DNA of 64,000 bases from a virus (taxonomy: Duplodnaviria > Heunggongvirae > Uroviricota > Caudoviricetes): the IMG/VR virus record IMGVR_UViG_2541047873_000001. The stretch is one strand, 5' to 3'. Positions 14,285 to 53,525 of this stretch are shown here, piece after piece (the stretch's first letter is position 1; every line of letters starts with the position of its first letter). The notes below the pieces were generated by a model. The model was given only the letters and a program-made list of their open reading frames with translations. It searched no databases and was not told the DNA's origin. Position numbers and translations under genes: made by a program.

Positions 14285-14520
14285 TTATATTCATGCCGTC
14301 GTAGCAAATTCTGCGACCAGGTTTGACAGCCTGAATACTTACGCGGACAACCGCACATTTCCGATATTGCGGTATTTTTGTGTCCGTAAAACCACGTTAC
14401 GCCCGAATTATGGTGGGGCGTGATGGGGAGGCTTCGGCCTGCTGGTTTCGTAAGTGCCAGTCTGTCAACCCTGTCACGTCCTGCCACCTGTTTGACAGCG
14501 GGTCGCAGGTTGTTTATCAA
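14285..14520 (+). ncRNA. Candidate C4-like antisense RNA or immI leader (approximate bounds)
   Basis: ORF-free leader before icd with a UUCG-loop hairpin (gaggcttcggcctg) and repeated ttgacag / ctgtcaa complementary elements, resembling the P1 c4-icd-ant layout. Confidence 0.3.
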
Positions 14521-14537
14521 CTTACGAGGCCGTAACT

Positions 14538-14762
14538 ATGGTTAATGCCAATCATTGCTCACGTCCAGAATTCATCTGGCGTTTCCACTCCCTGCAAAAA
14601 CATTGTGATCACTTCGCAATTGCCGCAACTGAAAAAGAAGCCCGTTCTCTGATCCCTGATCAGTATGGCGTTCTCACTGGTCGTTTCTCTACTTCCCCAC
14701 AACCAAACACTAATCCCTGGTATCGCAATATTACCAATCCCGGCATTGCGGAGGCTCACTGA
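14538..14762 (+). CDS. icd: Icd-like cell division inhibitor
   Basis: 74 aa immediately upstream of and overlapping the Rha/Ant gene; paralog of 52369..52584 (EFIWRF..C..H..AATE.EAR motif). Confidence 0.55.
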   Translation: MVNANHCSRPEFIWRFHSLQKHCDHFAIAATEKEARSLIPDQYGVLTGRFSTSPQPNTNPWYRNITNPGIAEAH

Positions 14763-15469
14763 TGGATATCTGCATTCTCGAAAAACTATCAATGACCAGC
14801 ATTGAGATTGCGGAGCTGGTGGGAAGTCAACACTCTGACGTTAAACGTAGTATTGAGCGTATGGTTGCTCGAAGCATTATCCGAAAACCGCCAATGGCTG
14901 TTTTCGAAAAAATCAATAACTTAGGATTGCGTCGTGGCGTTGAGGCTTACGTCTTCGAAGGCGAGCAAGGCAAACGAGACAGCATTATTGTCGTTGCGCA
15001 GCTCTCTCCGGAATTCACCGCCCGGCTGGTGGACCGCTGGCGCGAACTGGAAGAACAAGTACGCCAGCCGTTGACCGAAATAGAGATGATCGCTGCAATG
15101 GCTGCGAATGCAGTTCAGCAGCAAAAGCGGCTTCATGCTGTTGAGTCAAAGGTTAGCCAGGTCGCTGAAACCGTCGAGCAGATCAAGAAAGGCAACATAC
15201 CAGAAGGCTACATTGGCTACCGCCAACTGGCGGCGAAATGCGGCCTGACTGAAGCCAAATGCCGTAACCTGGTCAACGCTTACCGGATCCCCACAGATAC
15301 GCATGAGTTTTTGACGCCAGAGGGGGTATTGTCGCGTCGTACTATTGTGGCCTTATCTCCCTTCATGAATGCCTTTACCCTGATGATGTCGGAGGCTGAA
15401 CACCGAGGAAAACGCTGGTATCACCCAAGGATGGGGCAATTCCAGGTAATCGGTTGGGGAGGCGAGTGA
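14762..15469 (+). CDS. ant: Antirepressor, Rha/Ant family
   Basis: N-terminal TSIEIAELVGSQHSDVKRSIER (Rha-type) and conserved central/C-terminal blocks shared with 52584..53525. Confidence 0.7.
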   Translation: MDICILEKLSMTSIEIAELVGSQHSDVKRSIERMVARSIIRKPPMAVFEKINNLGLRRGVEAYVFEGEQGKRDSIIVVAQLSPEFTARLVDRWRELEEQVRQPLTEIEMIAAMAANAVQQQKRLHAVESKVSQVAETVEQIKKGNIPEGYIGYRQLAAKCGLTEAKCRNLVNAYRIPTDTHEFLTPEGVLSRRTIVALSPFMNAFTLMMSEAEHRGKRWYHPRMGQFQVIGWGGE

Positions 15470-15666
15470 TGGACATCATGCAGGCGGTAAAAAAAATCAG
15501 GGAAGGACAGGCTGAAGTGTGCCGCCGTAAAGCATGGAGTGTTGGTGTATGGGTCTGGCCTGATAATAGCTCTACTACTGGATGGTTTTGTATTAATGGA
15601 TACCAGATCCGGGAAGTCGATTTATCGACGGCGGATGCAGTCGGTAATGATTGGATCGTAACTTGA
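15454..15666 (+). CDS. Small DUF2829-like (Tad2-like) protein
   Basis: 70 aa, AVKKIREGQAEVCRRKAW...DAVGNDWIVT; homologous to the C-terminal extension of the second Ant copy. Confidence 0.45.
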   Translation: MGRRVMDIMQAVKKIREGQAEVCRRKAWSVGVWVWPDNSSTTGWFCINGYQIREVDLSTADAVGNDWIVT

Positions 15667-15674
15667 AGTGTGAT

Positions 15675-15699
15675 GCCCCGGCTTGGCCGGGGCTTTTTT
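15675..15699 (+). terminator. Rho-independent terminator
   Basis: gccccggcttggccggggc hairpin plus a T6 run, between convergent genes. Confidence 0.65.
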
Positions 15700-16183
15700 A
15701 TGCCTCATTAGTTGAGGTTGCTGCGTCTCCGACTGGTAACAGAGCTGTATTGCGTGGTTCGCCAGCAGGCCAGCGATAGCCAGACACTCTTGATGTTGGG
15801 AATGCGCGAATATTAACAGCATCCCCCTGGTTCCCACCCAAGACAAGCAGATCGCCATTGGCGCGGTGTCCGACAACAAAGCCTACATGCCCACCGCCTG
15901 CGCGAGTAAATACAACGATACATCCGTATGCCGGTGTATCTAATTTCTCGCCCCAATCCAGATAGGATTTTGCCGACTCAAATCTTGTTGAGCGGATACC
16001 TACACGTTCCAGCATTGCACCAACAAATGCAGCGCACCACGGCGTTTCGTCGTCTTTAATTCCGCTGCGCTTAATATCCCGCCAGAACTGAACGATCTCA
16101 GGATTGTGTTTCGCTCCTTTTATTTCGGTGACTCCAATATTTTTACGGGCCTCAATAAGCCAGCGAGGTTCAATGTTTGCCAT
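15698..16183 (-). CDS. Cys/His cell-wall hydrolase candidate (NlpC/P60 or CHAP-like, TIGR02594-type)
   Basis: 161 aa with PWCAAFVGAMLE and GHVGFVVG motifs typical of papain-like peptidoglycan hydrolases. Confidence 0.45.
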   Translation of the reverse strand: MANIEPRWLIEARKNIGVTEIKGAKHNPEIVQFWRDIKRSGIKDDETPWCAAFVGAMLERVGIRSTRFESAKSYLDWGEKLDTPAYGCIVVFTRAGGGHVGFVVGHRANGDLLVLGGNQGDAVNIRAFPTSRVSGYRWPAGEPRNTALLPVGDAATSTNEA

Positions 16184-16320
16184 ATATTTCTCCCGCTCAT
16201 GGGTTAATAAGTAGGCAAACTATGGTGAGTATGTGATTTTGACGGTAGTGTCGTTCATCCCTGAAAATAACATTCTCCATACCCTCTCAAACCGAACCGC
16301 TTAAGGCGGATTTAACGGTT

Positions 16321-19300
16321 TTGAGGGGGCTTCCTTTGGACAAAATAATTGATTCAATTAGCCAGGCCACCAGCATTGGGGCGCTGATTGAAATTGTTAG
16401 TCGGTTGCATAAACCGCGAGCTGTAGTGACCTTTGGCGTTAAGAAAGTCGATGGCGTCAGTATTCAGAAAACACGCCGGACAGCAAACAACGCCGCAGTA
16501 GATCTTCTTAATTCCCTTCCGCCCGGCTTCGATGGAGCGAAATTAACTGACGAACAGCGTCAGATTCTTGCCGGGTATACCGGTGAAGGCGGCCTGACAG
16601 ATGGTGAGGGCAGCCAATACGAATACTATACGCCACAGTTTATGGCAGAAGGTATATGGGATCTCTTCGGCGACTACGGTATTGATAGCGGTCACGTACT
16701 GGAACCGTCAGCAGGCACAGGTATTTTCCAGGAGACAAAACGGCAGGGCATGATAATGACCAGCGCCGAACTGTCTCCGATCTCCGGTCGAATAAACCAG
16801 CTTTTGCACCCGGAAGATGATGTGAATATCGGGGCGTTTGAGGCGCTGGCGGCGAAAGATGCAATGTATGACCACGCAGTTGGTAACGTACCGTTTGGCG
16901 AAGGGCGTTCCGGCGTCGCCGGGCTTGATCCGGCATATGCAAACGAGAAGAACGTTGGCAATTATTTTGTGCTGCGCACGATCGACAAGGTTAAGCCTGG
17001 TGGGCTAATTGTATTGGTGGTGCCGAATGGCATGACCGATGGTACGAAATACAAAAAATTGCGCGATAAAGTCAGCCGTAAAGCGGAATTTTTGGGCGCG
17101 CATCGTATGCCTTCTGGTACGTTCAGCGAATCCGGTACAGATACCGTGGTGGACGTATGGGTATTGCGTAAACACCCGGAAACCTTCCTGGAGATGATCC
17201 CCGACACGGATGATGCAACGCTCAAATCGGCAAACGTCCTTTGGGATACCTTCCTCAAAGGGAAATGGTTTACAACCGAAGGGAAGCGATTTGTTTACGG
17301 CGACATGGAACGCACCAGCTTCCGCAATACCCTGGTGGTGAAAAAGGACGGTCGTGTATCCAATGAGTCGATGAAAACCGCGTTATCACGCCGCTTTGAA
17401 AGCCGTATTAATTGGGATTTGCTCGGAGTAACTACCCAGGCATGGCAGGGCGCAAAAGTAGGGGATAAGCGTCTTGTAGGCGGTATCTGGCATGAGTTTG
17501 ATGGCCTGAAATGGGTTAAGGACACGACAACCAAATCCTCCGCGCTTGATGTAAGTCGATATGGTGTTTCGACGTTTGGCGATCTGCAGATCGCGTTCCA
17601 GTCAACAAACGGGATTCTGGCTTTGTCATGGGACCAGATATCGGCGATCGCGTCCGACTATCCATCGGTTGTCAGTGATGAAGTGGCAGCAATGATTCGC
17701 TTTGCTGGCAAACAGCGAGAAAAAGACAGGGAGCGCGTTATGCGCGGTGCGTTGATAGGGCAGTTGATCAACAAGGCACTTGATTTGCGTAACCTGGGGG
17801 TGAACGTTGATGACAAACTGGCAGATGCATCCCGCCTGGCGGCAGCAGAAGTTGCGAAGTATGGACCACCGCACGCGATTAAGCTGAATGGGCTTGCTGA
17901 AGCTGGCGCTAAAAACTGGATGACGTTCACTGGCAATGTGAAACAGGATGGTTCCACTTCTGACCTTCTGGCAGGGCGACTTGATGTAACGGATGGTGCT
18001 GCCGGTATTGACTTTACACGTCCGGAACAAGTGATAGCACATCTTTTCAGTGATGTAGCCCTTAATCCTATAACGCTGGGCGACTTTCGTGAGGCGTTTG
18101 CTGGTGAACTGCCAGAGGACGACGACGCGGCCCTTGAATACCTGGCGAAATTTGATGATATCGCTATTGATGGGTATGGCTGCCTGCTGCCGATGGACCG
18201 CGCCACCAGCGGCGATATTGTAACCAAAACAGCATTGCTGGTGGGCTGGCGTGATGCATCAACAGGTGAGCAGAAAGCGAACTTTGAGCGTCAGTTGGCG
18301 AAAATCGAAGAGAAACGCATTTTCACGCCACTAAATAAAGTCACCGTTAATCTGAACGCCCGCTGGCTGGATCGCCGCTTGATAAAAGAGTTCCTGGCAG
18401 AGCAGGGCTATGACGAGTTTAAGTACACTGAACCTGATCTGAAGGTCGTCGATGGCATTCTGGTATCTCCGGACGATTACGAAGGTAAGGACGGGGTATT
18501 TACCGGCTATCAGCTACGAACCGTAAACGGCAAAAACGGGAATGAGTTCAAGAAGGCCAACAATAAAGACGGCTTCCTGAACCAGTTAGAAAACTACCTG
18601 AACGGTGTTAAACCGCGTGGGCAGAACGCTAACGAGTACCTGGATAAAATTGCTCAACTGGAAGTTAGCTTTAACGACTGGTTACGCACCCACCCGCAGG
18701 CGGATCAGATAGCCCGTGACTATAACGACGCATTCAATGGCTTCATTCCGTTCACGCACTCTAACGCACCGCTTGGCCTGGAAGGGATTAGTGGAAAGCG
18801 CATTCCTCTGACTTATCAGAATGAAGAAGTTCGTCGCTTATCAGAAGATGGGCGCGGCATCATGGGATTTGGCACCGGGCTGGGTAAAACCACGACCGCG
18901 CTTGCGCTTGAGGCGTATAACTTCGAAACAGGTCGTACTAAACGCACGTGTATTGTTGTTCCGAAGGCGGTTTATCAGAACTGGTATCACGAGGCACAGA
19001 GCTTCTACAGTGCTGATGCCTTCGCCAATATGATGTTTATCGGTCTGGATGAAGTTCGTGATGACAGCGGAAATATTCTGACCGCTCCGGTGCTTGATGA
19101 AAATGGCGAACCCCGCCTCGACAGTAACGGGCAGCCTCTTACCAGAAATGTTGTGAAAGAGTCCGCCAGCGCCGTTATCGTTCAGCGCATGAACATGATC
19201 CCGTCGTCAAATTGGCGAACGGTCATCATGACAAAAGAACAATTCGCGTCTATCCCGCTACGAGAAAAAACCATCGAGGAGAACTCACAGCAAGCTGTCT

Positions 19301-22300
19301 TTAATGCTGTGGAAATGGGGCGTCTTGACCTGGCGTCTGGTAAACACCGTGATGCGCAGAAGAAGAACAAGATTAAGGATCAGGCCGCGAATACCGGTAC
19401 AACGAAGAAGCAGAATATCCCGTACTTTGAGGATATGAACTTCGATAGCGTGATAGCCGACGAGGGGCATAACTACCGCAACTCCTTTAATGCCGGGCGT
19501 GAAGCGGGACAACTGGCATATTTGCCTAACCCGGCAGTATCCAAGATGGCCCGCGACATGGCTGTAAAAGCTGCGTACATGATGAAACGCAACAACGGGC
19601 GTGGTGTAGTCATGCTGACGGCAACACCGCTGGTGAACAGTCCGATTGATGCCTTCAACATGCTGTCTACTGTCATTCCGCAGGAAGAGTGGATGCGCAT
19701 GGGCATCATTACGCCTGATGATTTCGTTCGTGTGTTTGGTAAAACAGCCACAGTTCAGGTCCAGAAAATTTCCGGGGAAGTGGAAGAGAAGCAGGGGCTG
19801 GTTGGCTTCCAGAACCTTGATGGCCTGCGTGGCATTTTCCATCGCTGGACTACTCTGAAGACTGCTGCGGACGTCGGGGCGACGGTTAAAATCCCTGATA
19901 TTGTCGAGAATACCTTGCAGATCCCGATGACAGGGGAGCAGGAGGCTGCTTATGAAGAGCTTCGTAAGCGTGCACAGGAGTTAAGTAGTAAAGATGCGCT
20001 GACGGTTGATGAAAACGGGCATATCACAAACGAAAAACCGGATGATTTCATCTTCTCCATCATCCGCGACATGGATAAGGTTGCTATAGATCCGGATCTG
20101 TATGCCAGTGCGATTACATTCCAGTTCCCCGTTGAGCTTGCAGACAAGGTAAAAGCTATTGCTGATGCCCTGCCAAAAGTAGCTGGCGGTAAAGTGGCAG
20201 ATGATGCAGACGAGGCCGAAGAAGACGGCGCTGGTGGGCTGGTTAGTACGCGCACCAGTAAGGTAGTGAAGACCACCTTTAGTGAACATCCGGCGCATGT
20301 TGAAATACGTGCCAGCATTGAACTGGAAGCTGAAATACTGAAGGCCATTGCTGCCGCCGGGATTGATATGCAGCAGGTATCACACCCAATCCCGCCGAAG
20401 TATGCCGCGCTGATCGAAAACCTTCGTGAAGGTCTGAAGAACGGTAAACAAATTGTCTTCATTGATGAAAAAGCCCAGCACCAGAAGCTGCGCCGTATTA
20501 TCGCCAGTGCACTGCAAATGCCGGAGCAGGAGATAGGCATTATCAATGCGACGACCGTTAGCCAGGCTGGCGGCATCAAGCTGAAGAAGGTGAATAAGCC
20601 GACTGAACCTACTCCGAATAAAAACGGTGAATACAAAGAAGGGGCATGGGAAACCTACTACAGCAAACTTGCCCAATATGAGGATTATCTCTCAGCTAAA
20701 AATGATGCTGGCCTTGAGGGTATGGAAGGCATTGCCGCCGACTATAACGAAGGGCGCACGCGCATAATTATCTGTAACAAGAAGGCTGAAGTAGGTATTA
20801 ACCTGCATATCGGGACAACCGATATCCACCACCTGACACTACCCTGGACACCAGCCAGTATCGACCAACGAAATGGGCGCGGTGCGCGCGTAGGTTCACC
20901 GCAAGAGAAGGTCAATGTTCACTACTATTGTGGCAAAGGCACATTCGACGACTTCCGTCTGGATACGCTGAAACGTAAGAAAGACTGGATCAAGATGGTG
21001 ATGACCTCCGACATGTCAGAGATCGCCAATGGTGATGCGGATGATGCTGATGAACGCGCCATTATGCTGGCGGCAAACCCGGAAGAACGCCGCGCAATCA
21101 TGGCTCGCCAGGCGCAAGAGCGTGAAGAACGTCTGAAACTGAAAGCACAGCGCGAGGCCAACAATGCTCTCGATATCTACCTGAAAGCGGCAAACGCCGC
21201 TGGAAAAGATATCGGCATGATGGAGACAGAACTGAAAAGCGCGATGGAACAGATAGAGTATTACCAGCGAAATCTTGACGACCTGATAAAAGCGGGTACG
21301 AACAGGAATGGGCAAAAATTCGCGCTTGAGCAGTTGAGTAGCTACAGAAAACGTGCGCGGGTGCTGCGGTTTGCGATCACCAGGGCAAAAGACGCGGATA
21401 CCATAATGAAACGCTCTCGTGGTGATGTGGAGCGCGCTATTAAGTCTGGTGTGCTGGATATCAGTATCGATGTTATTCAGAACCCACAGGAATATATGCG
21501 CACTGACAAGAATATCCTGTTGCATAAAGGTAGTTATTACCGTGCAGTCATTGATGATCGCGAAACAACAGCGATTGTCCGGGTGGAAAAAATTGACGGT
21601 GAAAAAGCACAATACCTCTGCCGTATCGCCTGGCTGGATAGAGCAAGTCGTTACGCTCGATCACCGGGGTCAATCGTTACATTGCCGTTTGACTCTGTGA
21701 TTGAAGCGGTAACTTTTGAAGAGGGGGTAGCTGAATCGCGCGCAACGGCTGCGCGTGGTGTTCAGTGCCACCAGCTATCAACAATACTTACTCGCGATCA
21801 GTTCTATGATGCTATTCGCAATGGGGTAATGAATGTTATTGCTGGTAAACCTGGTAATGCATGGGGCGGTGGGTCAGCTATTAAATACTGGGCATATCGT
21901 ACAGATGATGGTCAGATCGCGCTGTCATCGGCCTATGATGGCGTGATAGGCCAAAAAATCGGGCGAGCATCGGATATAGCACCTGAACGATGGATATATC
22001 CAGATGGCAACGATGAGGCGCTGAAGCGTGAAGTGGCAAAAATACAAGCCAGTGATAACCCGCTGAATATCGTGGACGGCGAGGGATTCCTCCAGGCATT
22101 GTATGGGTATGATTACATCCAGGGAATGCAGGCATGGGGCGCACAGGCAACGATGGATGATGTTGTCCAGGAGTTCGAAAACTGGATGGCTGGGCGTGGT
22201 CTGTCAGGTCGTTCGCTTAATAAAGTCACTTCTGAAGATATTCTTAGCTTGTTCCGCAAACCGTCCGGAGAAGGTCTGGAATCATTCTGGAGGACCGTGC

Positions 22301-27726: not shown

Positions 27727-27803
27727 GATGGTGTAGCTCAGTAGGATAGAGCAGCAGCCTTCTAAGCTGTCGGTCGGTGGTTCGAATCCACCCACCATCG
27801 CCA
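27727..27803 (+). tRNA. tRNA-Arg (anticodon UCU)
   Basis: Hand-folded cloverleaf: acceptor gatggtg/caccatc, D arm gctc/gagc, anticodon loop cuUCUaa, T loop ggtgg-ttcgaat-ccacc, encoded CCA. Confidence 0.8.
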
Positions 27804-27808: not shown

Positions 27809-27895
27809 GGGGAGTTAGTCCGTAGGGGTAGCGGGGTAGACTGTAAATCTACTGTCATTGCGACTCGGATGGTTCGACTCCATCACTCCCCACCA
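27809..27895 (+). tRNA. tRNA-Tyr (anticodon GUA), long variable arm
   Basis: Acceptor ggggagt/actcccc, anticodon arm gtaga-cuGUAaa-tctac, long variable arm, T arm gatgg-ttcgact-ccatc, CCA; resembles E. coli tRNA-Tyr. Confidence 0.7.
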
Positions 27896-27899: not shown

Positions 27900-27975
27900 G
27901 CCGGTTTAGCTCAGTTGGTAGAGCGCCTGCCTTGTAAGCAGGATGTCAGCGGTTCGAGTCCGTTAACCGGCACCA
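27900..27975 (+). tRNA. tRNA-Thr (anticodon UGU)
   Basis: Acceptor gccggtt/aaccggc, D loop agctcagttggtagagc, anticodon arm cctgc-cuUGUaa-gcagg, T loop ttcgagt, CCA. Confidence 0.85.
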
Positions 27976-28679: not shown

Positions 28680-28755
28680 GGCCCTTTAGCTCAGTGGTTA
28701 GAGCGGGCGACTCATAATCGCACGGTCACCGGTTCAAGTCCGGTAGGGGCCACCA
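28680..28755 (+). tRNA. tRNA with CAU anticodon, most like tRNA-Ile2 (AUA-decoding); elongator Met not excluded
   Basis: Near-complete resemblance to E. coli ileX-type tRNA as I recall it (GGCCCUUUAGCUCAGUGGUUAGAGC...CUCAUAAUCGC...GGUUCAAGUCC...GGGGCCACCA). Confidence 0.8.
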
Positions 28756-33569: not shown

Positions 33570-34607
33570 TTACCAGAGTTTTGCCGCGTACATCGTTTGT
33601 GTGAATGTGTACCCATAGCGTTCTTCAACGCTTTTACCGTATTTTTTCCTGGCTTCAGTAAGGCGGATGCCTGTCAGGTCATCGCCGGAGGCAATCATAA
33701 CTTCCAGTAGTTCCAGGTCCATTTTATCCAGCCTTGCCATTGCATCTTTAGCCTCTTGAATTTTCCGGCTAACGATCTGGTGTATGGCTGGATCGGCTTC
33801 GGCCAGCATTTTATCTGATTTGTTTTTTAAACTCTGATTGCGGATATCAATGTTTCTCAGGATATATGACTTCACGACATAGCTTGGCTGCTGCTTTTCC
33901 AGATCACGAACCCGATAAAGGTCAAATTCGCCGAGAAGTCCGCACGGAAGCGGTTTAATGCCAGTGTAAATGGTAAGGGTGCGGCGCTCACCAACGTTGT
34001 TAACAACGGGAATCTCTGTGTTTGCTTTTTTTGCAAAGATCAGCGCACCGTGCGTACCCACTCTGAAGCGTGAAAGTCCATTGTTGCCCTCGATATTGGT
34101 GGTAATCACCACATCGGTATAACCTTCTTTTCTTGCGCGGTATACCTCGCCCTCACGTTCAGCGGCGAAGAATCTGCGTTCTTCTTCAAGCGCACCGACA
34201 ACCTGTGAAAATATCCTGTTTTTCATGCTTTTCTTTATAGTTTTATCGTATTTTTTCAACAGGTCTTCGCGCGTAAATGTTCTCGTTGTGGTTGCGCTTT
34301 GCATAACGATATGCGTACTCTGATTAGTATCCTCAACAATGAATGGGATCGGTAAATAAACCGACTCAACAATGTTTGAGGCTTTGTCATCATCCTTGCG
34401 ACACAGATCAACAAAGGCTTTCCATTCGGCTACGCATTTTTCAGCTTCTTCTAATACAGCCGGATCATGTGTTAATGCAACATGGCGAAATTCCTCGCCA
34501 ACATAACTGGTATCATGGAAAACAGAGTTTGCGACCACCAGCTCTTTCCACCGTTCAGCGGTTTGCAGGAACCGTTTGTACTCATTCTCGATCGACTTCT
34601 TACTCAT
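33570..34607 (-). CDS. Candidate C1-type immunity repressor (positional inference only)
   Basis: 345 aa (ATG at 34607, MSKKSIENEY; the ORF-track N-terminal extension crosses operator sites). Divergent from the recombinase gene, with operator copies in its 5' region; sits between pacB and the lox-like site where c1 lies in P1. Confidence 0.35.
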   Translation of the reverse strand: MSKKSIENEYKRFLQTAERWKELVVANSVFHDTSYVGEEFRHVALTHDPAVLEEAEKCVAEWKAFVDLCRKDDDKASNIVESVYLPIPFIVEDTNQSTHIVMQSATTTRTFTREDLLKKYDKTIKKSMKNRIFSQVVGALEEERRFFAAEREGEVYRARKEGYTDVVITTNIEGNNGLSRFRVGTHGALIFAKKANTEIPVVNNVGERRTLTIYTGIKPLPCGLLGEFDLYRVRDLEKQQPSYVVKSYILRNIDIRNQSLKNKSDKMLAEADPAIHQIVSRKIQEAKDAMARLDKMDLELLEVMIASGDDLTGIRLTEARKKYGKSVEERYGYTFTQTMYAAKLW

Positions 34608-37422: not shown

Positions 37423-38073
37423 ATGAATAACATGCCAACGAAAGAGCTTTTTAAGTTCCTTCCCAAATACAAAGCTCACAAAAACGTTAGTGCATCGAAA
37501 ATCAAAAATGTTGTTATTTTCGGCGTAACTGATGCCCCACTTTGGGGCTGCATCGAACTCGTTGAACCAAAAGGGGCAACAGTTTGTGTTGACGCAATGT
37601 TTTTACAAAAACACCGACCAAAAACTGGCGGGTATCTGATCGTTTATGAAAACGGTTATCTGTTCTATGCCCCGGAGAAACCATTTGAGGAATGCTATGG
37701 CCTGGTTAACGACGCCTCCAAAAATGGAACCACGGTCATCATTACGGATGACAACGGCGTGATGATTAATCTTACTGGGAGCGTAACTATTTCTGCTGGT
37801 GGCATCACCACCCAGCAAGAAGAAATCGACCTTGAAGCAGCCGACTTCTCTGATGCGCTAATGTGGTTGAAGGAAGGCAAGAAAGTTGCCCGACGCGAGT
37901 GGAAAGGCGAAAAGCAATTCTGCTGGTTAGTTCTCGCTGGAAGCGTCAATTTACACGGCATTCACGTTCCTTATGGTGACCATTTTGTATTGAAAGATGC
38001 ACAAAATATGGACAGCGTTTGGTTGCCGTCTGTGGATGATTTACTGGCCTGTGACTGGTTTGTTGTGGAGTGA
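37423..38073 (+). CDS. Two-domain protein with C-terminal DUF2829-like (Tad2-like) module
   Basis: C-terminus FSDALMWLKEGKKVARREWKG...DDLLACDWFVVE. Confidence 0.5.
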   Translation: MNNMPTKELFKFLPKYKAHKNVSASKIKNVVIFGVTDAPLWGCIELVEPKGATVCVDAMFLQKHRPKTGGYLIVYENGYLFYAPEKPFEECYGLVNDASKNGTTVIITDDNGVMINLTGSVTISAGGITTQQEEIDLEAADFSDALMWLKEGKKVARREWKGEKQFCWLVLAGSVNLHGIHVPYGDHFVLKDAQNMDSVWLPSVDDLLACDWFVVE

Positions 38074-40633: not shown

Positions 40634-40653
40634 ACTGTTTATTCATACAGTAT
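40634..40653. promoter_or_regulatory. LexA (SOS) box
   Basis: TACTGTTTATTCATACAGTA fits CTGT-N8-ACAG, 20 bp upstream of the humD start. Confidence 0.65.
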
Positions 40654-45815: not shown

Positions 45816-45856
45816 AATGTATACCGACTCTGTTTTGTTCCGAGCGGTAAAATAAT

Positions 45857-45888
45857 ATGTTAGAAAATTAAAATCAATATTCTAACAC
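45857..45888. promoter_or_regulatory. Bipartite operator
   Basis: atgttagaaaattaaaatcaatattctaaca inverted half-sites, intergenic. Confidence 0.55.
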
Positions 45889-45919
45889 GGTTATGAGTGC
45901 ATAAACGATGTGTTCAGGA

Positions 45920-46606: not shown

Positions 46607-46914
46607 GCGGCAACCTTCTCCCGCAGCCAGATACAAACCGGGCCATCTTCAGTGTCATGAATAGAGCCAACAAACCATCCTTCGCCCTCTGGTCGCTCTG
46701 GTTCCCAGGCGGCAATATCGGGACCATCTGCGTCCAGATTAAAATGATCTTCATCCATACTGCGAATAGTCCACTGAAGATTATTTTCCTTCATCCAGGC
46801 GTCAAATTCCTCAGTGGATATATATTCACGATCTGCGCAAAACTTTTCATACTCCGGATGTGTCCAGCAGCCATATTCATCACGTTCTACCGGCATTTCT
46901 TTAATGATGCTCAC
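46603..46914 (-). CDS. Hypothetical protein
   Basis: 103 aa, coupled to ppp. Confidence 0.4.
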
Positions 46915-47135
46915 TCTTCATCCTCCAAGTCGGCAACGGCCTCCATCACATCAGAACCGCGAATAACCTCAAAAGCACGGCAGGCCATTTCAAACACCTG
47001 TTGTTCTTGCGGATGCGGTGACTCCCAATACTTAAAACCAGGTCGATGCTCGTAACCCAACATGGAATAAAAATCGCCAGCAAGTTCAATCGCGGCATCA
47101 ACAAGTTCGCGATTTGTCATCGTCTGTTCTGTCAT
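46911..47135 (-). CDS. Hypothetical protein
   Basis: 74 aa, coupled. Confidence 0.35.
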   Translation of the reverse strand: MTEQTMTNRELVDAAIELAGDFYSMLGYEHRPGFKYWESPHPQEQQVFEMACRAFEVIRGSDVMEAVADLEDEE

Positions 47136-47407
47136 TTTGTTTTCTCCTGTCTGAACATCACTATCATCAGGTCGCCTTTTGTCGCTATCCTGGCTGTTGT
47201 ACCTGGTTCAATGCGGCTAAGCTCAAATGCGTCATAGAACGCTTCTAATGCCTTCTGGCGTAGTTCCTGTTTGCGCCGTTTTTTCCACTGTTTTAGGAAA
47301 ATGGAACCCAGCCATCGCCATGTACGGGACATGATGTAAAGCCAACCGAGAAGTGCCAGACCGGTATTTAGGAGCGTATCGATCGTTATTGTCGTGTCGA
47401 TATTCAC
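47132..47407 (-). CDS. Small membrane protein
   Basis: 91 aa with TM helix LLNTGLALLGWLYIM. Confidence 0.35.
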   Translation of the reverse strand: MNIDTTITIDTLLNTGLALLGWLYIMSRTWRWLGSIFLKQWKKRRKQELRQKALEAFYDAFELSRIEPGTTARIATKGDLMIVMFRQEKTK

Positions 47408-48114
47408 TGGCTGCCTCCTTTGCGAAGCTGTTCAGCAATACTTACGCATATCTCTGCGCCTCTAATCAGCCCCGGAACGTTCTTGTTTGGCCCAACTTCA
47501 CCATCGACAAAATCAATCATCGCGTTACGAGCCATATCCACGCCCTGCGCACGTACTTCAGCCAGGAAAGCATCGGTGGCTGGGGTGTCAACACGGATAC
47601 TGTCGCGCAAGATGAAAAATGCATTGAGCATTCCAGTCTCTGGCACTTCATCCTGATGCTTCTCATACGCATCAAGAGCCTTCATCATCTCAGCTCCGAA
47701 TGGTTGAGGGTGCACAGACTTCAGCTCCGCATTCTCCGCCGCCAGCACCACGCGTTCGCTCTCCAGTTCTGTAATGCGCCGTCTTGCAGCATCCAGTTCA
47801 ATCGACAATTTTCCCAACTGCTCTTTATGCTTCTTGTATTCCTGATATGCGTGCCAAGACTGACCTTTGCGCACACTATCCGTGATATCAGTAATCTGTT
47901 CTGGTGTTAGCGTGGTCAGTGGCTGTGCTGGGAAAATCAGCACTTTCCCGGCATCCCAATCAAAACCCACCTGAATTGACTGAACCTCAACTGATGGTGT
48001 TGAACCGATGCGACCAGGCGAATGAACAACGATCGTTACATTCATATCGCGACGATGGCTGTGGTTGTTGGACAAAATACGATTCACCAACTCCGAGAAT
48101 TTGGAAAATTTCAT
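47404..48114 (-). CDS. Ea22-like family protein
   Basis: ATG at 48114 ([10 protein letters not shown]) overlapping the upstream stop; C-terminus related to 49119..49793. Confidence 0.4.
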
Positions 48115-48434
48115 GCTGATTCCCTTTGCTCTTCCTGGATAATGTTGTTGCAATCTTTCACGCACTCGTTGCAGATGAAAACGTTGTCCCCGGCAATTAA
48201 CTTTTTAACGGTGTGCTGGGATTTGTTGCAGAAGCTGCAATAAAGCGTTGGACTGGCTGATACGGATGGTGCGCCAGATGTCAGCCGCGCGATGTCGTTC
48301 TTGCGACGCAATATCACACGGCTGCACTCGACCAGCATCTCCGGGGATATATCCTCCTCCGTGGCGAGCGCCTCCAGACGTTCGAGCAAGCGAAATACTT
48401 TTTCCTGGGTGATTGCAGAATGCGATGTGGTCAT
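48111..48434 (-). CDS. Stand-alone ClpX-type C4 zinc-finger (ZBD-like) protein
   Basis: [39 protein letters not shown] closely parallels the ClpX N-terminal zinc-binding domain; AAGGAGAG RBS; no AAA+ module. Confidence 0.55.
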
Positions 48435-48435
48435 C

Positions 48436-49122
48436 TCACTCTCCTTTGAGGCGAATGCCAGCGGCACGGGAATCATTCCATCGCTTTACTTCTTCACGAA
48501 TTACGTCAATGCATTCTTTCGAATCCATTAGGTAATCTTCATCAAAAAGCCTTTCCTGTTCGTTTTCTATCGCAACAATGATTGCTTCAACTAACTTTTG
48601 TGCCTGAGAACCACTTTCTAACTCTGCAATGCGCTTCTCTGCGGCTTCCAGCTTCTCGCGCATATCGTCAACGTACTCGACCAGAGATCCGCCAGCAGGA
48701 ATTTCGCACTCCTCGACCAGTTGGAAGTAGATATCAGCTGCGGCCCGTGTGTTGCTATGCCTAGCGTCGCCCATCTCACCTTCACGAAGAGCATCGCGTT
48801 CGGCGGTAAGATTGGCTATTTTGCTGTCTTTGCCTTCAAGCTCAACGCGCAGCTTCCCTACCGTTAGCGCAATATCCTCGTTCTCCTGGTCGCGGCGTTT
48901 GATGTATTGCTGGTTTCTTTCCCGTTCACCCAGTAGTGCCAGCACGGTTTCTGGTCCGGCCAGAAATTTGAAGGCGTTGAGCGCATCAATATCCACACCG
49001 TAATCTTTAAGTTCCTGTTCACTTAACAAATCATCATCAGCTGGCAACATTAACAGGCGTTCCATTGCTGGAATTGCACGTTCCGCCGCCTCACGCAGTG
49101 CCTGGTAATTAATTTCGCTCAT
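48436..49122 (-). CDS. Ea22-like coiled-coil protein
   Basis: N-terminus [16 protein letters not shown], paralogous to 43248..43979. Confidence 0.5.
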
Positions 49123-49793
49123 TGGTTGCCTCCTTTGCGAAGCTGGGCAGCGAACCTATCAGCTGCATCCGCGCAAGCAGAAGCAACGGAATCAAAAAAT
49201 GGATCATCTCCTGTATCGCGCATCGTCAAAGCGAATGCCTCCACCCCTTGTGCCTGTATTTCTACAAGGGATGCCTTAGATGTACTGCTTTTCGCCTCGC
49301 CTAATTCGTTATGAGCGATGTTCGCTATACATGCGATGTCTATATCTGGATGATTAATTGGGCAATGGCTAAGAATTGCCTCAAGTGCTGCTTTTTTGCT
49401 TTGGCATTCCGCCACCAGCGCCCCGCAATTGCTTTCCAGCTCTGCAATACACTTTTTAGCGGCCTCCAGCTCAACACGCAGATTCTCAAGCGTTAGAGCC
49501 TTCTCCACGTTCTCGTCCAGCAGTTCAATCACATCAGGATCGCTACCATCAACTACTGATATGCGCGAATTTTTGTAATGCTCGTCAGCATAAGTTCGTC
49601 CAGTTTTGAAGCATCCGTCATCCTCCATGCCGGAACAGGCATAAACAACATGTGATCCAGATATGCGCTGCATTGACATTTCCTCGCCACAAACAGGGCA
49701 TTTAGGCGCTGGTTTCGGTGAATAACGTTCACGTAACGGATAGTAAAGCTCGATCTCCGCCAGTTGCTCTGGCGTTAAACCTTCAGACTTCAT
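49119..49793 (-). CDS. Ea22-like protein with Cys-rich N-terminal region
   Basis: C-terminus matches 47404..48114; CPVCGEE...C..C motif. Confidence 0.45.
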   Translation of the reverse strand: MKSEGLTPEQLAEIELYYPLRERYSPKPAPKCPVCGEEMSMQRISGSHVVYACSGMEDDGCFKTGRTYADEHYKNSRISVVDGSDPDVIELLDENVEKALTLENLRVELEAAKKCIAELESNCGALVAECQSKKAALEAILSHCPINHPDIDIACIANIAHNELGEAKSSTSKASLVEIQAQGVEAFALTMRDTGDDPFFDSVASACADAADRFAAQLRKGGNQ

Positions 49794-50100
49794 GTACTCT
49801 CCTTTCGAAATAAACGTACTGATTAATCATTCCCAGGGGCATTTCGAGTTTTTCTGCGATCTCACGGCGGGGAACACCACACTGATGAAGCTGCCGCGCC
49901 AGTTCTATATCGCTCTGCCGGTATTTGGCTGACTGGTGAAAGTCTCCTTTCAGAATCATGCTGATCCGCAGTTGCCGCGCTTTAGTCCTGACAGCACCAC
50001 CGGTACGCCCGATCAGTCTCCCAATACCCTCGACTGTCATAGTCCCGGCGCACTGGCGGAGTATCATGATTTCTGCCCTTCCCCATCCCCGCCAGCTCAC
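49783..50100 (-). CDS. Hypothetical protein, possible HTH
   Basis: 105 aa; ARQLHQCGVPRREIAEKLEMP resembles a helix-turn-helix. Confidence 0.35.
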   Translation of the reverse strand: MSWRGWGRAEIMILRQCAGTMTVEGIGRLIGRTGGAVRTKARQLRISMILKGDFHQSAKYRQSDIELARQLHQCGVPRREIAEKLEMPLGMINQYVYFERRVHEV

Positions 50101-50708
50101 GCAGAACTCCTTCTAACCAAAAGAACGCCATCTTCAGAAACAACGTTGCAGGACTTCAGGTAATTCATTGCCTCTTTCGGTAATGGATTCTTTGGATCGG
50201 CGCTTGCCAGGGATTTCGATAACCTCATGATAAATTTGATCATTACCTTCTGACGGAGCTTGTGCTCATGAGATGCAGACAGGTAATAGGAAATGGTATG
50301 GGCTAAACGCTCACGAAGCTGTTCTGTGCCGTGATATACAGCAGCGATATCACGCAGTGCATTGACCAGTTCCCGGTAAATATGCGGAGCAACCTGGCAT
50401 TCAATGTTGGTTGGTGACTCATAAATTACATTCAGCCCCAGCTTTTGAGCCAGCTCGTGCTCTGCACGAGCGCCAACTGATTCCTCCCACCCCTTGAGCA
50501 AATAGACCGCATTAGCCGAACGCACCATTGCAAGGCAAATATCCATGTATTCGCTCTGGCAGAGGCCAGCAGGTAACAGCGCCGGATTCAGAACAATATG
50601 CCCTACCTCCATCAGCTCTTTTGCTTTCGAAAAAAACGCTGTGCGGTTGTAGTCGGGATAACCAGTCATCGGACCCGCGATGTAAATTTTCATAATGCGT
50701 TTTGACAT
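50097..50708 (-). CDS. DUF4406 (nucleoside 2-deoxyribosyltransferase-like) protein with extra C-terminal domain
   Basis: MKIYIAGPMTGYPDYNRTAFF...GHIVLNPA signature; ATG at 50706-50708 overlaps the stop of the small ORF upstream (TGATG). Confidence 0.5.
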   Translation of the reverse strand: MSKRIMKIYIAGPMTGYPDYNRTAFFSKAKELMEVGHIVLNPALLPAGLCQSEYMDICLAMVRSANAVYLLKGWEESVGARAEHELAQKLGLNVIYESPTNIECQVAPHIYRELVNALRDIAAVYHGTEQLRERLAHTISYYLSASHEHKLRQKVMIKFIMRLSKSLASADPKNPLPKEAMNYLKSCNVVSEDGVLLVRRSSA

Positions 50709-50860
50709 CAAAGTTTCCCCAGGAACGTTACGCAAAAGTTGATGAGAGCAAAGAGTTCAATGCCCAGCTCAAACAACGCCAGGACAGTGAAAAACAGGGC
50801 ATATAGCAACCCAATTTCTGTACCGGATTGCTGGTGGATTGCACTTATTGCGACAAGCAT
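50708..50860 (-). CDS. Small hydrophobic peptide (~50 aa), first gene of the leftward operon
   Basis: GGAGG RBS, then MLVAISAIHQQSGTEIGLLYALFFTVLALFELGIELFALINFCVTFLGKL; not in the ORF track (under 60 aa). Confidence 0.3.
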   Translation of the reverse strand: MLVAISAIHQQSGTEIGLLYALFFTVLALFELGIELFALINFCVTFLGKL

Positions 50861-50904
50861 CATGACCTCCTGATATAGCGTCTGAAAAAAAGTATCTTCA
50901 TTTT

Positions 50905-50938
50905 GTGTTAGAAAATCAATTTTGATTTTCTAACACAT
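50905..50938. promoter_or_regulatory. 34-bp palindromic operator between divergent operons
   Basis: tgtgttagaaaatcaa-tt-ttgattttctaacaca: perfect 16-bp inverted repeat. Confidence 0.65.
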
Positions 50939-50980
50939 TTGATCAACCATAGCGGCGATGTAGACAAACCGGGTATTTCT

Positions 50981-51556
50981 ATGAAGCAAAGCTATTGGGA
51001 GAAACAGACACAAAAAGCCCTGCAAAAACTGGCTGATCCGAAATGGCGGGAGGAACAAAGGGCAAAGCGTCTTCAGCAAGCTCAACGCCAGCAGCAGCGT
51101 GCGCGAGAAAAAGCCGCATCGCCTGAATATCGGCAAAAGAAAATTGAAAAAGCGAAGCAATATGAACAGCGAAGAAAAGAGAAGGCCGCTTCTGCTCCTG
51201 TCAAAAAAACTCGCGCGTCACGCGGCCTGAAAGGCAGAACACTCACAGCAGATGAGCGCCGGATACAAACTGCCATCGGTGCTCTCCCCTGCATTGCCTG
51301 CCATATGCACGGACAGCATAGCCCTGTGGTATCCCTGCACCACATCTTCGGAAGAACAGCAGAGAACGCGCATAAATACGTCCTCCCTTTGTGTAAATGG
51401 CACCATCAACACGCAGCGCCAGCAGAGATCCGCGAGCAATACCCCTGGTTGGTTCCTGTTCATGCTGATGGAAAAATAGGCGGCAAAGCAGATTTCAGGC
51501 GGCACAATGCTGATGAAATGACGTTGTATCAGATGGTGACTGAATTAATAAATTAA
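50981..51556 (+). CDS. Ref-like HNH-type nuclease (recombination enhancement function-like)
   Basis: Basic N-terminus, then His/Cys cluster CIACHMHGQHSPVVSLHHIFG...PLCKWHH; sits next to an operator as ref does in P1. Start is uncertain (50939 or 50981). Confidence 0.45.
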   Translation: MKQSYWEKQTQKALQKLADPKWREEQRAKRLQQAQRQQQRAREKAASPEYRQKKIEKAKQYEQRRKEKAASAPVKKTRASRGLKGRTLTADERRIQTAIGALPCIACHMHGQHSPVVSLHHIFGRTAENAHKYVLPLCKWHHQHAAPAEIREQYPWLVPVHADGKIGGKADFRRHNADEMTLYQMVTELIN

Positions 51557-51568
51557 TTTTCTAACATT
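51551..51568. promoter_or_regulatory. Operator-like site (AATTAATTTTCTAACATT)
   Basis: Motif copy immediately after the ref-like stop. Confidence 0.45.
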
Positions 51569-51887
51569 TTAAGTTGAATTATGAGATCCACCGTTGTACA
51601 TTCACAACCGATTGGTACACCGGTCAACTTTTTGAGACAAACCGTTTGGTTTTTCGTATGATTGCCGCCGCCATACCAATGGCGGTGCAATATAGGTGGC
51701 TGAAAAGCCCCCGTTGACTCACGGTGTTCCAGCCTTTATTGCGCCGCCACCAGACCGTGGAACAGTCGATGGCGGCTCCGAAAGCAAGGAGTCACTACAC
51801 TATGAACAGCTACTGTCTTTTCCCATCACTCGTTGTCCGCCACTCACGCGATAATCTGCATTCTTTACTCGCGCTGGGGGTGTCAAA

Positions 51888-52055
51888 ATGACCGTTCGCT
51901 ACCTCAACTTTCAAATCCAGAACATCACTGGCGGTTGCTATGACTGGTTTGTCACTCTCGGAAAAGAAGTGATCACCGGGAAGCTGGATGAAGTGAAAGC
52001 TAAAGCAATGGCCTACGCCTGCAAGCAAGCCCAAAAGAAGAAAAGAAAAGCATAA
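51888..52055 (+). CDS. Small basic protein (55 aa), tentative
   Basis: GGGGG RBS then MTVRYLNFQIQNITGGCYDWFVTLGKEV...KKKRKA; terminator follows. Confidence 0.25.
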   Translation: MTVRYLNFQIQNITGGCYDWFVTLGKEVITGKLDEVKAKAMAYACKQAQKKKRKA

Positions 52056-52160
52056 GAAAACACACAGTTGCGCCCTGGCATTATCGTGGGGTATATTTCT
52101 ACGGCACCTTAGAAAAACGGGTGCCGGGATTGGAACCCCGGATAATGCAAAAGGCGACAC

Positions 52161-52184
52161 AGACGCCGAAAGCGTCTTTTTTTG
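52161..52184 (+). terminator. Rho-independent terminator
   Basis: agacgccgaaagcgtct hairpin plus a T7 run. Confidence 0.6.
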
Positions 52185-52199
52185 TGTCATGCCATCGCA

Positions 52200-52345
52200 C
52201 AGCCATGCGTAGCGTTTAGCTCAGAGATCAATGGTAGTGCTGGCTGGGCTGCCGAAAGGCAGGCCGGTTCCCTTTTGCGCCGGTAGTTCCAACCCAGTCA
52301 GTGCTACCGCCATTGAGATTGGAACCTCACGCGGTAGCTCCTTAA
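52200..52345 (+). ncRNA. Candidate C4-like antisense RNA or immI leader, second copy (approximate bounds)
   Basis: GAAA-loop hairpin ggctgccgaaaggcagcc-like and elements complementary to the icd RBS region (ggaggctgcc); same architecture as 14285..14520. Confidence 0.3.
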
Positions 52346-52368
52346 ATTAGCAAAAGGAGGCTGCCAAT

Positions 52369-52584
52369 ATGGCTACTATCCCTACCCCAACTCATTCTGA
52401 ATTTATCTGGCGTTTCTATTCCTGCCAAAAACACCTCTATATCTGCGTAATGGCTGCTACCGAAGCAGAGGCGCGCTCATACCTTCCCGAAGAACCCTGT
52501 ATTTTTGCTGCTCGCTTCACTCTTGATGCGATGGAGATCCTCAATTACTGGAATCTGCCGATGAACTGCGTGGAGGTGCACTGA
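52369..52584 (+). CDS. icd: Icd-like cell division inhibitor, second copy
   Basis: 71 aa, paralog of 14538..14762; overlaps the start of the second Ant gene. Confidence 0.55.
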   Translation: MATIPTPTHSEFIWRFYSCQKHLYICVMAATEAEARSYLPEEPCIFAARFTLDAMEILNYWNLPMNCVEVH

Positions 52585-53525
52585 TGAATCTGTCCATCTC
52601 TCAAAAAGCGACAATGACCAGCATTGAGATCGCGGAACTGGTGGGAAGTCGTCACTCTGATGTTAAACGCAGCATCGAAAGACTTGTTGCTAAAGGAGTT
52701 ATCCAACATACGCCATTGGCTACAGTTGAGAATAATCAATCACTTAGCCCTAATAAATACACAAAAGCCTATTTCTTCGAAGGCGAACAAGGCAAGCGCG
52801 ATAGTATTATCGTCGTCGCGCAGCTCTCTCCGGAATTCACCGCCCGGCTGGTGGACCGCTGGCGCGAACTGGAGAATGTCAGGGGACCGTTAAAATCAAA
52901 AGCCGAAATCCTGGCTGAAATGGCGCAAATGCATCTTGAGCATGAACGCAGGATCAACGCCGTAAATGCCCAGGTAGCCGAGGTATCGGCACAAGTGTCC
53001 AGGGTCACCGAAACACTTGAGCAGATCAAGAAAGGCAATATTCCAGAAGGCTACATTGGCTATCGCCAGTTGGCGGCAAAATGCGGCCTGACTGAAGCCA
53101 AATGCCGCAACCTGGTCAACGCTTACCGGATACCCACTGATACGCATGAGTTTTTAACTCCCGACGGTTTGCTTGCGCGACGCTCCATTGTGGCCCTGGC
53201 CCCCTTCCGGAAAGCCTTTAAGCAGGTTATGTCGGAGGCAGAACCACGTAACAAACGCTGGTATCATCCCAGGATGGGGCTATTTCAGGCCATTCACCAT
53301 CCTGTGCCTGAAAGTCCAAAGGCAAACCTGTCGTTGCATACCGCCAGAGAGAAGATTAAAACAGGGTATGCAACCGTATGCCGTCGAGCATCCTGGCCTG
53401 AAAGTGTCTGGGTATGGCCCGAAAGAGGCTCACGGAAAAACTGGCGCACCATTCGCGACGGCAAGATCTGTGCGATTGATTTACAGCCAGAAGATGTAGC
53501 AGCGACCGACTGGATTGTTAGTTAA
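52584..53525 (+). CDS. ant: Antirepressor (Rha/Ant family) fused to a C-terminal DUF2829-like module
   Basis: Rha-type N-terminus; 56-bp block identical to the first ant; C-terminus TVCRRASWPESVWVWP...AATDWIVS. Confidence 0.7.
   Translation: MNLSISQKATMTSIEIAELVGSRHSDVKRSIERLVAKGVIQHTPLATVENNQSLSPNKYTKAYFFEGEQGKRDSIIVVAQLSPEFTARLVDRWRELENVRGPLKSKAEILAEMAQMHLEHERRINAVNAQVAEVSAQVSRVTETLEQIKKGNIPEGYIGYRQLAAKCGLTEAKCRNLVNAYRIPTDTHEFLTPDGLLARRSIVALAPFRKAFKQVMSEAEPRNKRWYHPRMGLFQAIHHPVPESPKANLSLHTAREKIKTGYATVCRRASWPESVWVWPERGSRKNWRTIRDGKICAIDLQPEDVAATDWIVS

Follow-up and report, generated by a model that had tools for sequence, protein, structure and literature searches.

Two immI-type C4-icd-ant loci with unrelated antisense RNA codes on a D6-like phage-plasmid

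Phages P1 and P7 are the classical heteroimmune pair. The difference between their immunity codes, TTGACAG/GTTAGTG in P1 and TTAGCAG/GATTGTG in P7, is confined to the short a and b elements of the immI operon, to which the a' and b' segments of the C4 antisense RNA are complementary. P1 is annotated with one such operon, whereas two gene pairs in the GenBank record of phage D6 (NC_050154; orf19/18/17 and orf83/82) are labelled "inhibition of cell division" and "putative anti-repressor," and a second c4/icd region is mentioned in a 2019 paper (D6-like plasmid prophage pYU39_89; PMC6799933). Statements on the D6 and P1 genomes are taken here from the GenBank annotations and from that paper. In Gifsy-1, the small RNA IsrK acts in trans to raise translation of the antirepressor gene anrP about 140-fold by pairing with a downstream "orf45" region; this activation needs coupling to the upstream reading frame, and processing of the orf45 region yields a small RNA that is stable (PMC4825925). 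Hfq binding by IsrK and its trans-activation of antirepressor translation have been seen in Gifsy-1 only (PMC4825925). Here we describe a stretch of 64,000 nucleotides (nt) from a member of the Caudoviricetes (IMG/VR record IMGVR_UViG_2541047873_000001; the whole stretch is called the window below), which carries two loci of the immI type, each with a C4 RNA, an icd gene, and a Rha-type ant gene.

The window belongs to a D6-like phage-plasmid of the P1 family, as judged from its synteny with phage D6 and its nucleotide identity to it, which is 92.6% at locus 1 (4 kb compared) and 89.3% at locus 2 (2.8 kb). The neighbors are as in D6: pro-repL and lysozyme-darB for locus 1, ref and pmgF for locus 2. 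We consider it probable that the window holds two complete immI-type switches, both apparently functional, and that the near-identical blocks shared by their ant genes are joints of exchange and not the residue of a recent duplication. The presence of two loci is already annotated, is family-wide among D6-like plasmid prophages, and is not new. These prophages are common in Escherichia coli and Salmonella, and with the two loci as an annotated hallmark, presence alone matters little. Coverage of 80% or more is reached by 108 PLSDB records for locus 1 and by 91 for locus 2. Three closed plasmids with both loci (NZ_CP104667, NZ_CP085065, and NZ_LR890273) have an intact 235-amino-acid (aa) Ant-1 and 313-aa Ant-2, and the loci of NZ_CP104667 are 99.8% and 97.8% identical to those of the window. 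The analysis adds two apparently orthogonal antisense RNA codes within one genome, evidence that a winged helix-turn-helix (wHTH) cassette of the antirepressor is exchanged between the two loci, and a connection from IsrK, an RNA already studied by experiment, to the a1b1 leaders found in C4 modules.

Locus 1 is made up as follows (ORF, open reading frame).

14179..14193, + strand: C1-operator-like site (ATGTTAGAAAATTAA) abutting the -35 element of the first locus-1 promoter; motif search, with the same motif there in D6
14195-14222, + strand: sigma-70-like promoter, P51a-like, TTGATG-16-TATGAT; consensus scan
14263-14291, + strand: sigma-70-like promoter, P51b-like, TTGATC-17-TATATT; consensus scan; aligns with the annotated P1c4/P51b of P1
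14285..14385, + strand: a1b1 leader, with a1 (TTGACAG) at 14323-14329 and b1 (ACTTACG) at 14337-14343, then a hairpin and a T-run
14406..14491, + strand: C4 antisense RNA 1, with b' (CGTAAGT) at 14449-14455 in the loop of hairpin 2 and a' (CTGTCAA) at 14462-14468
14492..14537, + strand: targets a2 (TTGACAG, 14492-14498) and b2 (ACTTACG, 14520-14526), b2 overlapping the icd-1 Shine-Dalgarno sequence GAGG (14526-14529)
14538..14762, + strand: icd-1, 74 aa; NCBIfam NF033153 (Icd-like), 40 bits versus a threshold of 25; phrog_1426; the stop codon overlaps the ant-1 ATG as TGATG
14762..15469, + strand: ant-1, Rha-type, 235 aa; N-terminal Pfam Phage_pRha (PF09669), 31.0 bits versus 29.9; PHROG 63 ("anti-repressor Ant"), E = 1.4e-45; hypervariable cassette at ~14825-14950, 56-bp block at 14996-15051, 133-bp block at 15178-15310
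15469..15666, + strand: 65-aa ORF, overlapping ant-1 as TGATG; phrog_7385, E = 3.7e-47
15675..15699, + strand: intrinsic terminator, an all-GC 8-bp stem and then TTTTTT

Locus 2 has the same order of parts, and its C-terminal module is fused to the ant gene.

52068..52097, + strand: inferred promoter, TTGCGC, 18 nt, TATATT; read from the sequence
52104..52184, + strand: IsrK-family a1b1 leader, with a1 (TTGGAAC) at 52130-52136 in a hairpin loop and b1 (GCAAAAGG) at 52147-52154 in single strand
52161-52177, + strand: intrinsic terminator of the leader, with a T-run after it; terminator scan
52227..52314, + strand: C4 antisense RNA 2, with b' (CCTTTTGC) at 52271-52278 and a' (GTTCCAA) at 52286-52292
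52319..52368, + strand: targets a2 (TTGGAAC, 52319-52325) and b2 (GCAAAAGG, 52350-52357), b2 overlapping the icd-2 Shine-Dalgarno sequence AGGAGG
52369..52584, + strand: icd-2, 71 aa; NF033153, 49.4 bits versus 25; TGATG overlap with ant-2
52584..53525, + strand: ant-2, Rha-type, 313 aa, with the C-terminal module fused; Phage_pRha, 33.6 bits versus 29.9; PHROG 63, E = 1.1e-57 over the whole protein; 56-bp block at 52818-52873, 133-bp block at 53021-53153

The C4 RNAs of both loci pass the Rfam model RF01695, at 69.6 bits for locus 1 and 76.7 bits for locus 2 against a gathering threshold of 45, which answers the scan proposed in a preliminary description of this DNA. With minimum free energies of -43.3 kcal/mol (z = -4.5) and -46.4 kcal/mol (z = -5.5), respectively, they are far more stable than shuffled controls, and in both folds b' lies in a hairpin loop and a' in the neighboring single strand. 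The leader of locus 1 (14285-14337) matches c4-a1b1 (RF03163; 55.2 bits versus a gathering threshold of 46.7; fold z = -2.6), while that of locus 2 matches isrK (RF01394; 62.5 bits versus 50) and reaches just 22.4 bits with c4-a1b1. The locus-2 promoter is called inferred because it falls below the threshold of the promoter scan; the alignment of the window with D6 is near-identical from 52067 on, so that conservation starts at its -35 element. Together with the NF033153 and Phage_pRha matches and 74% nucleotide homology between the loci, these results bear out the preliminary description of paralogous loci in direct orientation, as the P1 annotation does its statement that P1 has a single immI. 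Some of its details change. Its structured, operator-proximal leaders are confirmed as to structure, but an operator-like site stands beside the promoter in locus 1 only. Its locus 2, placed at 52200..53525, is real but starts upstream, with the promoter at ~52068-52097 and the leader at 52104-52182.

In both loci, a' and b' are exactly complementary to a1 and b1 upstream and to a2 and b2 downstream. The code of locus 1 is TTGACAG (a) and ACTTACG (b), opposite a' CTGTCAA and b' CGTAAGT; that of locus 2 is TTGGAAC and GCAAAAGG, opposite GTTCCAA and CCTTTTGC. The codes match each other at just 4/7 and 3/8 positions, so cross-regulation of the loci is unlikely. The two C4 codes thus appear to be unrelated and orthogonal, and each C4 should act on its own operon only. 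In a set of 34 related loci drawn from IMG/VR contigs, D6, P1, and the window, a1 and a2 are identical to each other and to the reverse complement of a', and b1 and b2 likewise to that of b', in every case. The leaders are otherwise near-invariant, and the loci carry five allele combinations of type 1 and three of type 2. Type-1 loci have TTGACAG or TTAGCAG as "a" and GTTAGTG, ACTTACG, GATTGTG, or ACGAATG as "b"; type-2 loci have TTGGAAC or TTGAGAC as "a" and GCAAAAGG or GTCAAAGG as "b." In D6-like plasmids, therefore, the P1 and P7 alleles are reassorted, and additional alleles are present. The "a" element of locus 2 is TTGGAAC in the window versus TTGAGAC in D6, a GA/AG swap that is found at a1, a', and a2 together. 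This comparative covariation is the strongest evidence that both switches work. The ratio of nonsynonymous to synonymous differences per site (pN/pS) is 0.04 for icd-1 (11 copies) and for icd-2 (17 copies) and 0.08 to 0.15 for the ant cores, indicating that the coding parts of icd and ant are under purifying selection. This small set of reassorting alleles, those of P1 and P7 plus the new ones, should predict heteroimmunity groups among phage-plasmids, and the findings bear on the prediction of their superinfection immunity and induction behavior.

The operon order (promoter, a1b1 leader, C4 antisense RNA, a2/b2 targets, icd, and Rha-type ant) suggests how each switch may operate. By analogy with P1 and P7, C4 would be cut out of the operon transcript by processing, and its a' and b' segments would then pair with a2 and b2, the latter covering the icd ribosome-binding site. 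Translation of icd would be blocked and, with it, that of ant, which is predicted to be translationally coupled to icd, and the lysogenic state would persist. If C4 were overtaken or titrated, both Icd and Ant would be produced, and Ant would counteract the prophage repressor; by the same analogy, Ant-1 and Ant-2 may bind and inactivate C1. Locus 1 has the layout of P1, with the C1-operator-like site on the upstream promoter and a second promoter behind it. The IsrK-type leader of locus 2, which ends in a terminator, may serve to titrate a C4-like RNA. Separate induction inputs for the two loci are plausible.

The candidate operator was identified indirectly. The consensus for the P1 C1 operator, ATTGCTCTAATAAATTT, has no match in the window at up to three mismatches, and the motif was therefore sought among over-represented k-mers. 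A 15-bp motif, [AG]TGTTAGAAAATTAA, has 19 sites in the window versus 2.6 expected, a number reached in none of 100 shuffles. It often occurs in inverted pairs 17 bp apart, in intergenic positions ahead of the repL, c1, lpa, and ref homologues; the C1 homologue has 345 aa and is encoded at 33570-34607 on the - strand. From this enrichment and these positions, the motif is probably the D6-type C1 operator. The ref homologue itself was identified by Pfam RecA_dep_nuc (E = 6e-36).

12974, 14179, 25138, 26383/26400, 30163/30180, 34622, 36017, 45857/45874, 50905/50922, 51553, and 62672: sites of [AG]TGTTAGAAAATTAA
50905-50919 and 50922-50936: C1-operator-like inverted pair upstream of ref
51553-51567, - strand: single C1-operator-like site just after ref, ~500 bp upstream of locus 2

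We also considered whether the loci are under direct SOS control and rejected this: the window has two LexA boxes (CTGT-N8-ACAG), at 40635 and 56261, and neither is near a locus.

As to the leader of locus 2, isrK is followed by C4 about 24 nt on in all 29 isrK matches from 20 lambdoid prophage loci, with up to three tandem units (the isrK-C4 units of lambdoid prophage contigs are found in L036-L083 of our set, for example at 4171-5380 of L037). We infer that the orf45/STnc1160 region of Gifsy-1 is a C4 homologue and that IsrK-type RNAs are C4 decoys, although Gifsy-1 was not among the blastn matches in the phage collection. Two further matches concern the C4 part of locus 2. A 39-codon ORF called "ash family protein" by the Prokaryotic Genome Annotation Pipeline overlies the C4 RNA (52182-52300; plasmids L087-L089), a call that is probably spurious, and the ash/CI region of phage P4 has a blastn match to the same part of the locus.

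Several observations weigh against two functional switches of this kind. The motif search found no operator-like site at the locus-2 promoter or within 500 bp of it. The authors of the IsrK paper describe its target as an ORF (orf45) and not as a C4 RNA (PMC4825925). The ant-2 frame is cut to 636 nt in three related loci (L021, L022, and L024) and to 897 nt in a fourth (L020), with homology running to the end, as in frameshifted or split genes; the shortened frames in the first three suggest that ant-2 may be dispensable in some lineages. (The gene tables of PLSDB leave out the intact 313-aa ant-2.) Both Ants and P1 Ant1 fall in PHROG 63 (E = 1e-45, 1e-57, and 3e-103, respectively), but a pairwise BLASTP of Ant against P1 Ant1 gives only E = 0.039 over 67 aa, and the C-terminal parts differ. 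The antirepressor function is accordingly assigned from gene position and PHROG membership. Finally, the low synonymous divergence of the blocks shared by the ant genes, described below, could reflect a cis-acting function that has gone unrecognized.

Of the alternatives, the one with most weight, although we regard it as unlikely, is that locus 2, and perhaps both Rha-type proteins, do not act against C1, and that the locus is a lambdoid-type IsrK-C4-Rha moron directed at the repressors of other prophages, or encodes a DNA-binding regulator. The IsrK family of the leader is typical of lambdoid and Stx prophages, and the nearest relatives of the Ants outside plasmids are lambdoid Roi/Rha proteins, with 62 to 64% identity over aa 1-237. 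The Ant proteins have wHTH signatures, and a variable cassette in the HTH region would fit a changing specificity for DNA or for a partner; the lack of an operator at the locus-2 promoter and the truncation of ant-2 in some plasmids point the same way. However, locus 2 is kept in about 90 D6-like plasmids in a fixed place between ref and pmgF, purifying selection on icd-2 and on the core of ant-2 is strong, and the same type of protein is encoded in the P1-like locus 1 and grouped with P1 Ant1 in PHROG 63.

The two ant genes share blocks of DNA. The preliminary description had reported a 56-bp identical block (14996..15051 = 52818..52873), which is exact and is a maximal exact match, and a second block of ~135 bp, which is real (124/133 positions, or 93.2%, identical between 15178-15310 and 53021-53153, at an offset of 37,843) but whose coordinates in locus 2 had been 1 to 2 nt off. 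The longest exact runs in the second block are 29, 23, 20, and 20 bp. Both copies of each block are on the + strand, in direct orientation and 37.8 kb apart, and the ant repeats are the sole long-range direct repeats in the window. (Within the first ORF, probably a tail-fiber gene by its position relative to D6, a direct repeat of ~215 nt occurs three times at positions 1-857, the copies being 77 to 80% identical.) The blocks are peaks in a longer homology, in which 14750-15446 and 52572-53289 are 74% identical; Ant-1 and Ant-2 have 68% aa identity, and Icd-1 and Icd-2 have 45%.

Comparison of 32 ant copies reveals a modular identity profile. From the 5' end, a locus-specific segment is followed by a hypervariable cassette of ~125 nt, a conserved block that contains the 56 bp (98 to 99% in all copies), a second locus-specific segment (44% between types), a second conserved block (90%), and a locus-specific 3' part. 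The divergence of the Rha N termini noted in the preliminary description is thus real but is concentrated in the cassette (aa ~22-63, inside the wHTH) and does not run throughout; synonymous differences per site (pS) there are about 0.47, and pN/pS is about 0.6. The 98 to 99% block identity holds among all copies, orthologous or paralogous alike, and in every segment the identity of paralogs within a genome equals that between genomes. Recent intragenomic gene conversion was rejected on this ground. The blocks, being equally conserved between and within genomes, carry no trace of recent duplication.

The cassettes, by contrast, appear to have moved between the loci. That of one locus-1 copy (L023) is nearest to the locus-2 allele of the window (84%, versus at most 64% to type-1 alleles), and that of one locus-2 copy (L020) is 91% identical to a locus-1 allele; no closed plasmid with the cassette combination of L023 was found. 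The simplest reading of these patterns is that the blocks are old, family-wide crossover joints around an exchangeable wHTH cassette or are kept uniform by recombination.

A different reading of the same blocks, which we hold to be quite unlikely, is that they are identical through a function at the nucleotide level (Chi, an internal promoter, a Rho or RNase site, or a protein-binding site) and not through recombination. At conserved codons, synonymous differences number 0/16 inside the 56-bp block versus 55/138 outside it (P = 6e-4) and 9/44 inside the 133-bp block versus 46/94 outside it (P = 0.0015). Since they are depleted in both blocks, protein constraint alone is an insufficient explanation, and this depletion, which we also count in favor of crossover joints, would fit a nucleotide-level function, as would the conservation of the blocks in all copies and genomes. 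Moreover, Chi (GCTGGTGG) lies within the 56-bp block of both ant genes, at 15025 and 52847, and ant-1 has a second Chi at 14815, on the far side of the variable cassette. However, Chi makes up just 8 bp of the 56-bp block, and it occurs 45 times in the window (30 on the + strand and 15 on the - strand, versus ~0.85 per strand expected from base composition), or about once per 1.4 kb, so a Chi within a block is not remarkable. RNA folding of the blocks was no better than in shuffled controls on either strand (z from +1.4 to -1.7), and scans of the + strand found no promoter-like or terminator-like site in them. The switch points of mosaic copies also fall at the blocks, as expected of crossover sites.

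The preliminary description called the direct repeats substrates for RecA-mediated deletion of the ~38-kb interval. We regard as improbable the reading that the identical blocks matter chiefly in this way, the plasmid being unstable or yielding functional deletion derivatives. Recombination by RecA in E. coli has a minimal processing segment of ~25 bp, which the ant repeats exceed. They are direct, with 56 bp of perfect identity and exact runs of 29, 23, and 20 bp, and both copies of the 56-bp block contain Chi. One 10.7-kb contig (L015, IMGVR_UViG_3300013958_000038; positions 1-5939) even has the predicted junction, with the DNA upstream of locus 1 (repL, c4-1, and icd-1) joined to that downstream of locus 2 (the pmgF side). 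Its hybrid ant gene switches parent three times, at conserved blocks. The contig is from a metagenome assembly, and with three switches it could be a chimera or an older mosaic; it may thus represent a rare recombinant or an assembly artifact of the chimeric kind. The deletion junction was found in 0/72,556 PLSDB plasmids and 0/5,426 complete E. coli genomes, and no reciprocal junction was found among 31 D6-type loci, so that deletion, while formally possible, is unsupported by these surveys. If the annotation of D6 is followed, c1, pacA/pacB, lpa, cre/rox, phd-doc, darB, and tRNA genes lie between the loci, and repA, repL, the par genes, and the majority of the structural genes lie on the other arc. 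A crossover would therefore be expected to leave a replicon without repressor and antitoxin and a circle without the plasmid replicon, products that would be lethal or quickly lost. The tRNA genes between the loci are four in number by Rfam (27727-27800, 27809-27892, 27900-27972, and 28680-28752) and match the tRNA cluster of D6.

Both ant loci end in a common module (phrog_7385), at 15469-15666 and 53316-53525. The 65-aa ORF of locus 1 is homologous to residues 249-313 of Ant-2 (BLASTP, 40% identity, E = 5e-17), which means that the module is a separate ORF in locus 1 and a part of Ant-2 in locus 2. Its family is very small: six representatives were found among 1.84 billion proteins. Against the Pfam family Tad2-like/DUF2829 (PF11195), the two copies give full-length but subthreshold alignments (16.7 and 10.6 bits versus 25), and a distant relative (P0009) reaches 23.9 bits against the same cutoff. 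In an AlphaFold2 (AF2) model of the module with a mean confidence (pLDDT) of 71, the best 12 Foldseek matches in the Protein Data Bank (PDB) are all Tad2, at E = 0.3 to 1.8 and a template modeling (TM) score of about 0.5. An hhalign comparison with the Tad2-like protein of the window itself is weak (probability, 2%), and a search by sequence for solved structures gave nothing significant for Ant-2. The module is shorter than Tad2 and differs from it also in its fusion or coupling to a Rha-type protein. These signals are concordant but weak, and none is significant; membership in Tad2 is not established, and the module is possibly a divergent relative, a lead only. A bona fide Tad2-like protein (PF11195, E = 2.8e-18) is encoded at 37423-38073, beside dut in the interval between the loci, as is orf114 in D6.

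If the module were Tad2-like, a more elaborate decision circuit with two inputs could be imagined, of which we are very doubtful: locus 1 would report the state of C1, locus 2 would be opened by an IsrK-type decoy, and the Ants would carry a divergent Tad2-like module, fused in Ant-2 and produced in locus 1 as a separate, coupled peptide. Such a module might soak up host immune signaling nucleotides or couple them to derepression of the prophage, and the a/b codes with the swappable wHTH cassette would form a combinatorial immunity code, reassorted at the conserved, Chi-containing blocks.

That the second locus is an artifact of assembly, a duplicated or collapsed contig, can be dismissed: the pair occurs, alike in order and orientation, in phage D6 and in about 100 plasmids that were closed independently, its two members are no more than 74% identical and are flanked by different genes, and with a second unit in RCS47 as well, the locus is neither an artifact nor a novel observation.

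Of the closest known systems, D6 shares the gene order, both loci, and the C4 code of locus 1, but the window is 7 to 11% diverged from it, and the wHTH cassettes differ in both ant genes. The punavirus RCS47 (NC_042128, 103405-105004) likewise has a second isrK-C4-icd-ant unit besides its canonical immI, with 87.5% identity to 52103-52517 of the window, a segment that runs from the leader across C4 into the 5' part of icd. That unit sits between pacB and c1, however, and continues into a different ant gene of 371 aa; its leader and icd part have no annotation in the RCS47 record. The resemblance of locus 2 to the IsrK-orf45-anrP system of Gifsy-1 lies in a leader that passes the isrK model, has the same shape of three hairpins and a terminator, and precedes a small ORF, presumably coupled in translation, and then a gene of the antirepressor type. 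It differs in that a recognizable C4 RNA and a 71-aa icd stand between leader and ant, whereas the published model has a 45-codon ORF in the intervening region and does not mention C4 (PMC4825925).

Where P1 and P7 have one immI operon, the window has two. Its ant genes are of the Rha/Roi type (235 or 313 aa) and are tied to P1 Ant1 at the PHROG level only, no kilA-repL follows ant, and repL lies upstream of locus 1. Nevertheless, the stretch of locus 1 that begins in the promoter region and reaches the middle of icd, taking in its 5' part, has 87.5% identity to P1, and the locus keeps the order of P1: operator-like site, two promoters, a1b1, C4, a2 and b2 over the icd ribosome-binding site, and icd overlapping ant. 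The site at 14179-14193 is in the position of Op51/Oc4 of P1, where Oc4 likewise overlaps the -35 element of P2c4, and the a2/b2 layout agrees with the annotated a2 and b2 sites. The "a" allele is common to P1 and locus 1, while the "b" allele, ACTTACG, belongs to neither P1 nor P7. Specificity in the family of the window thus varies at the same elements that separate P1 from P7.

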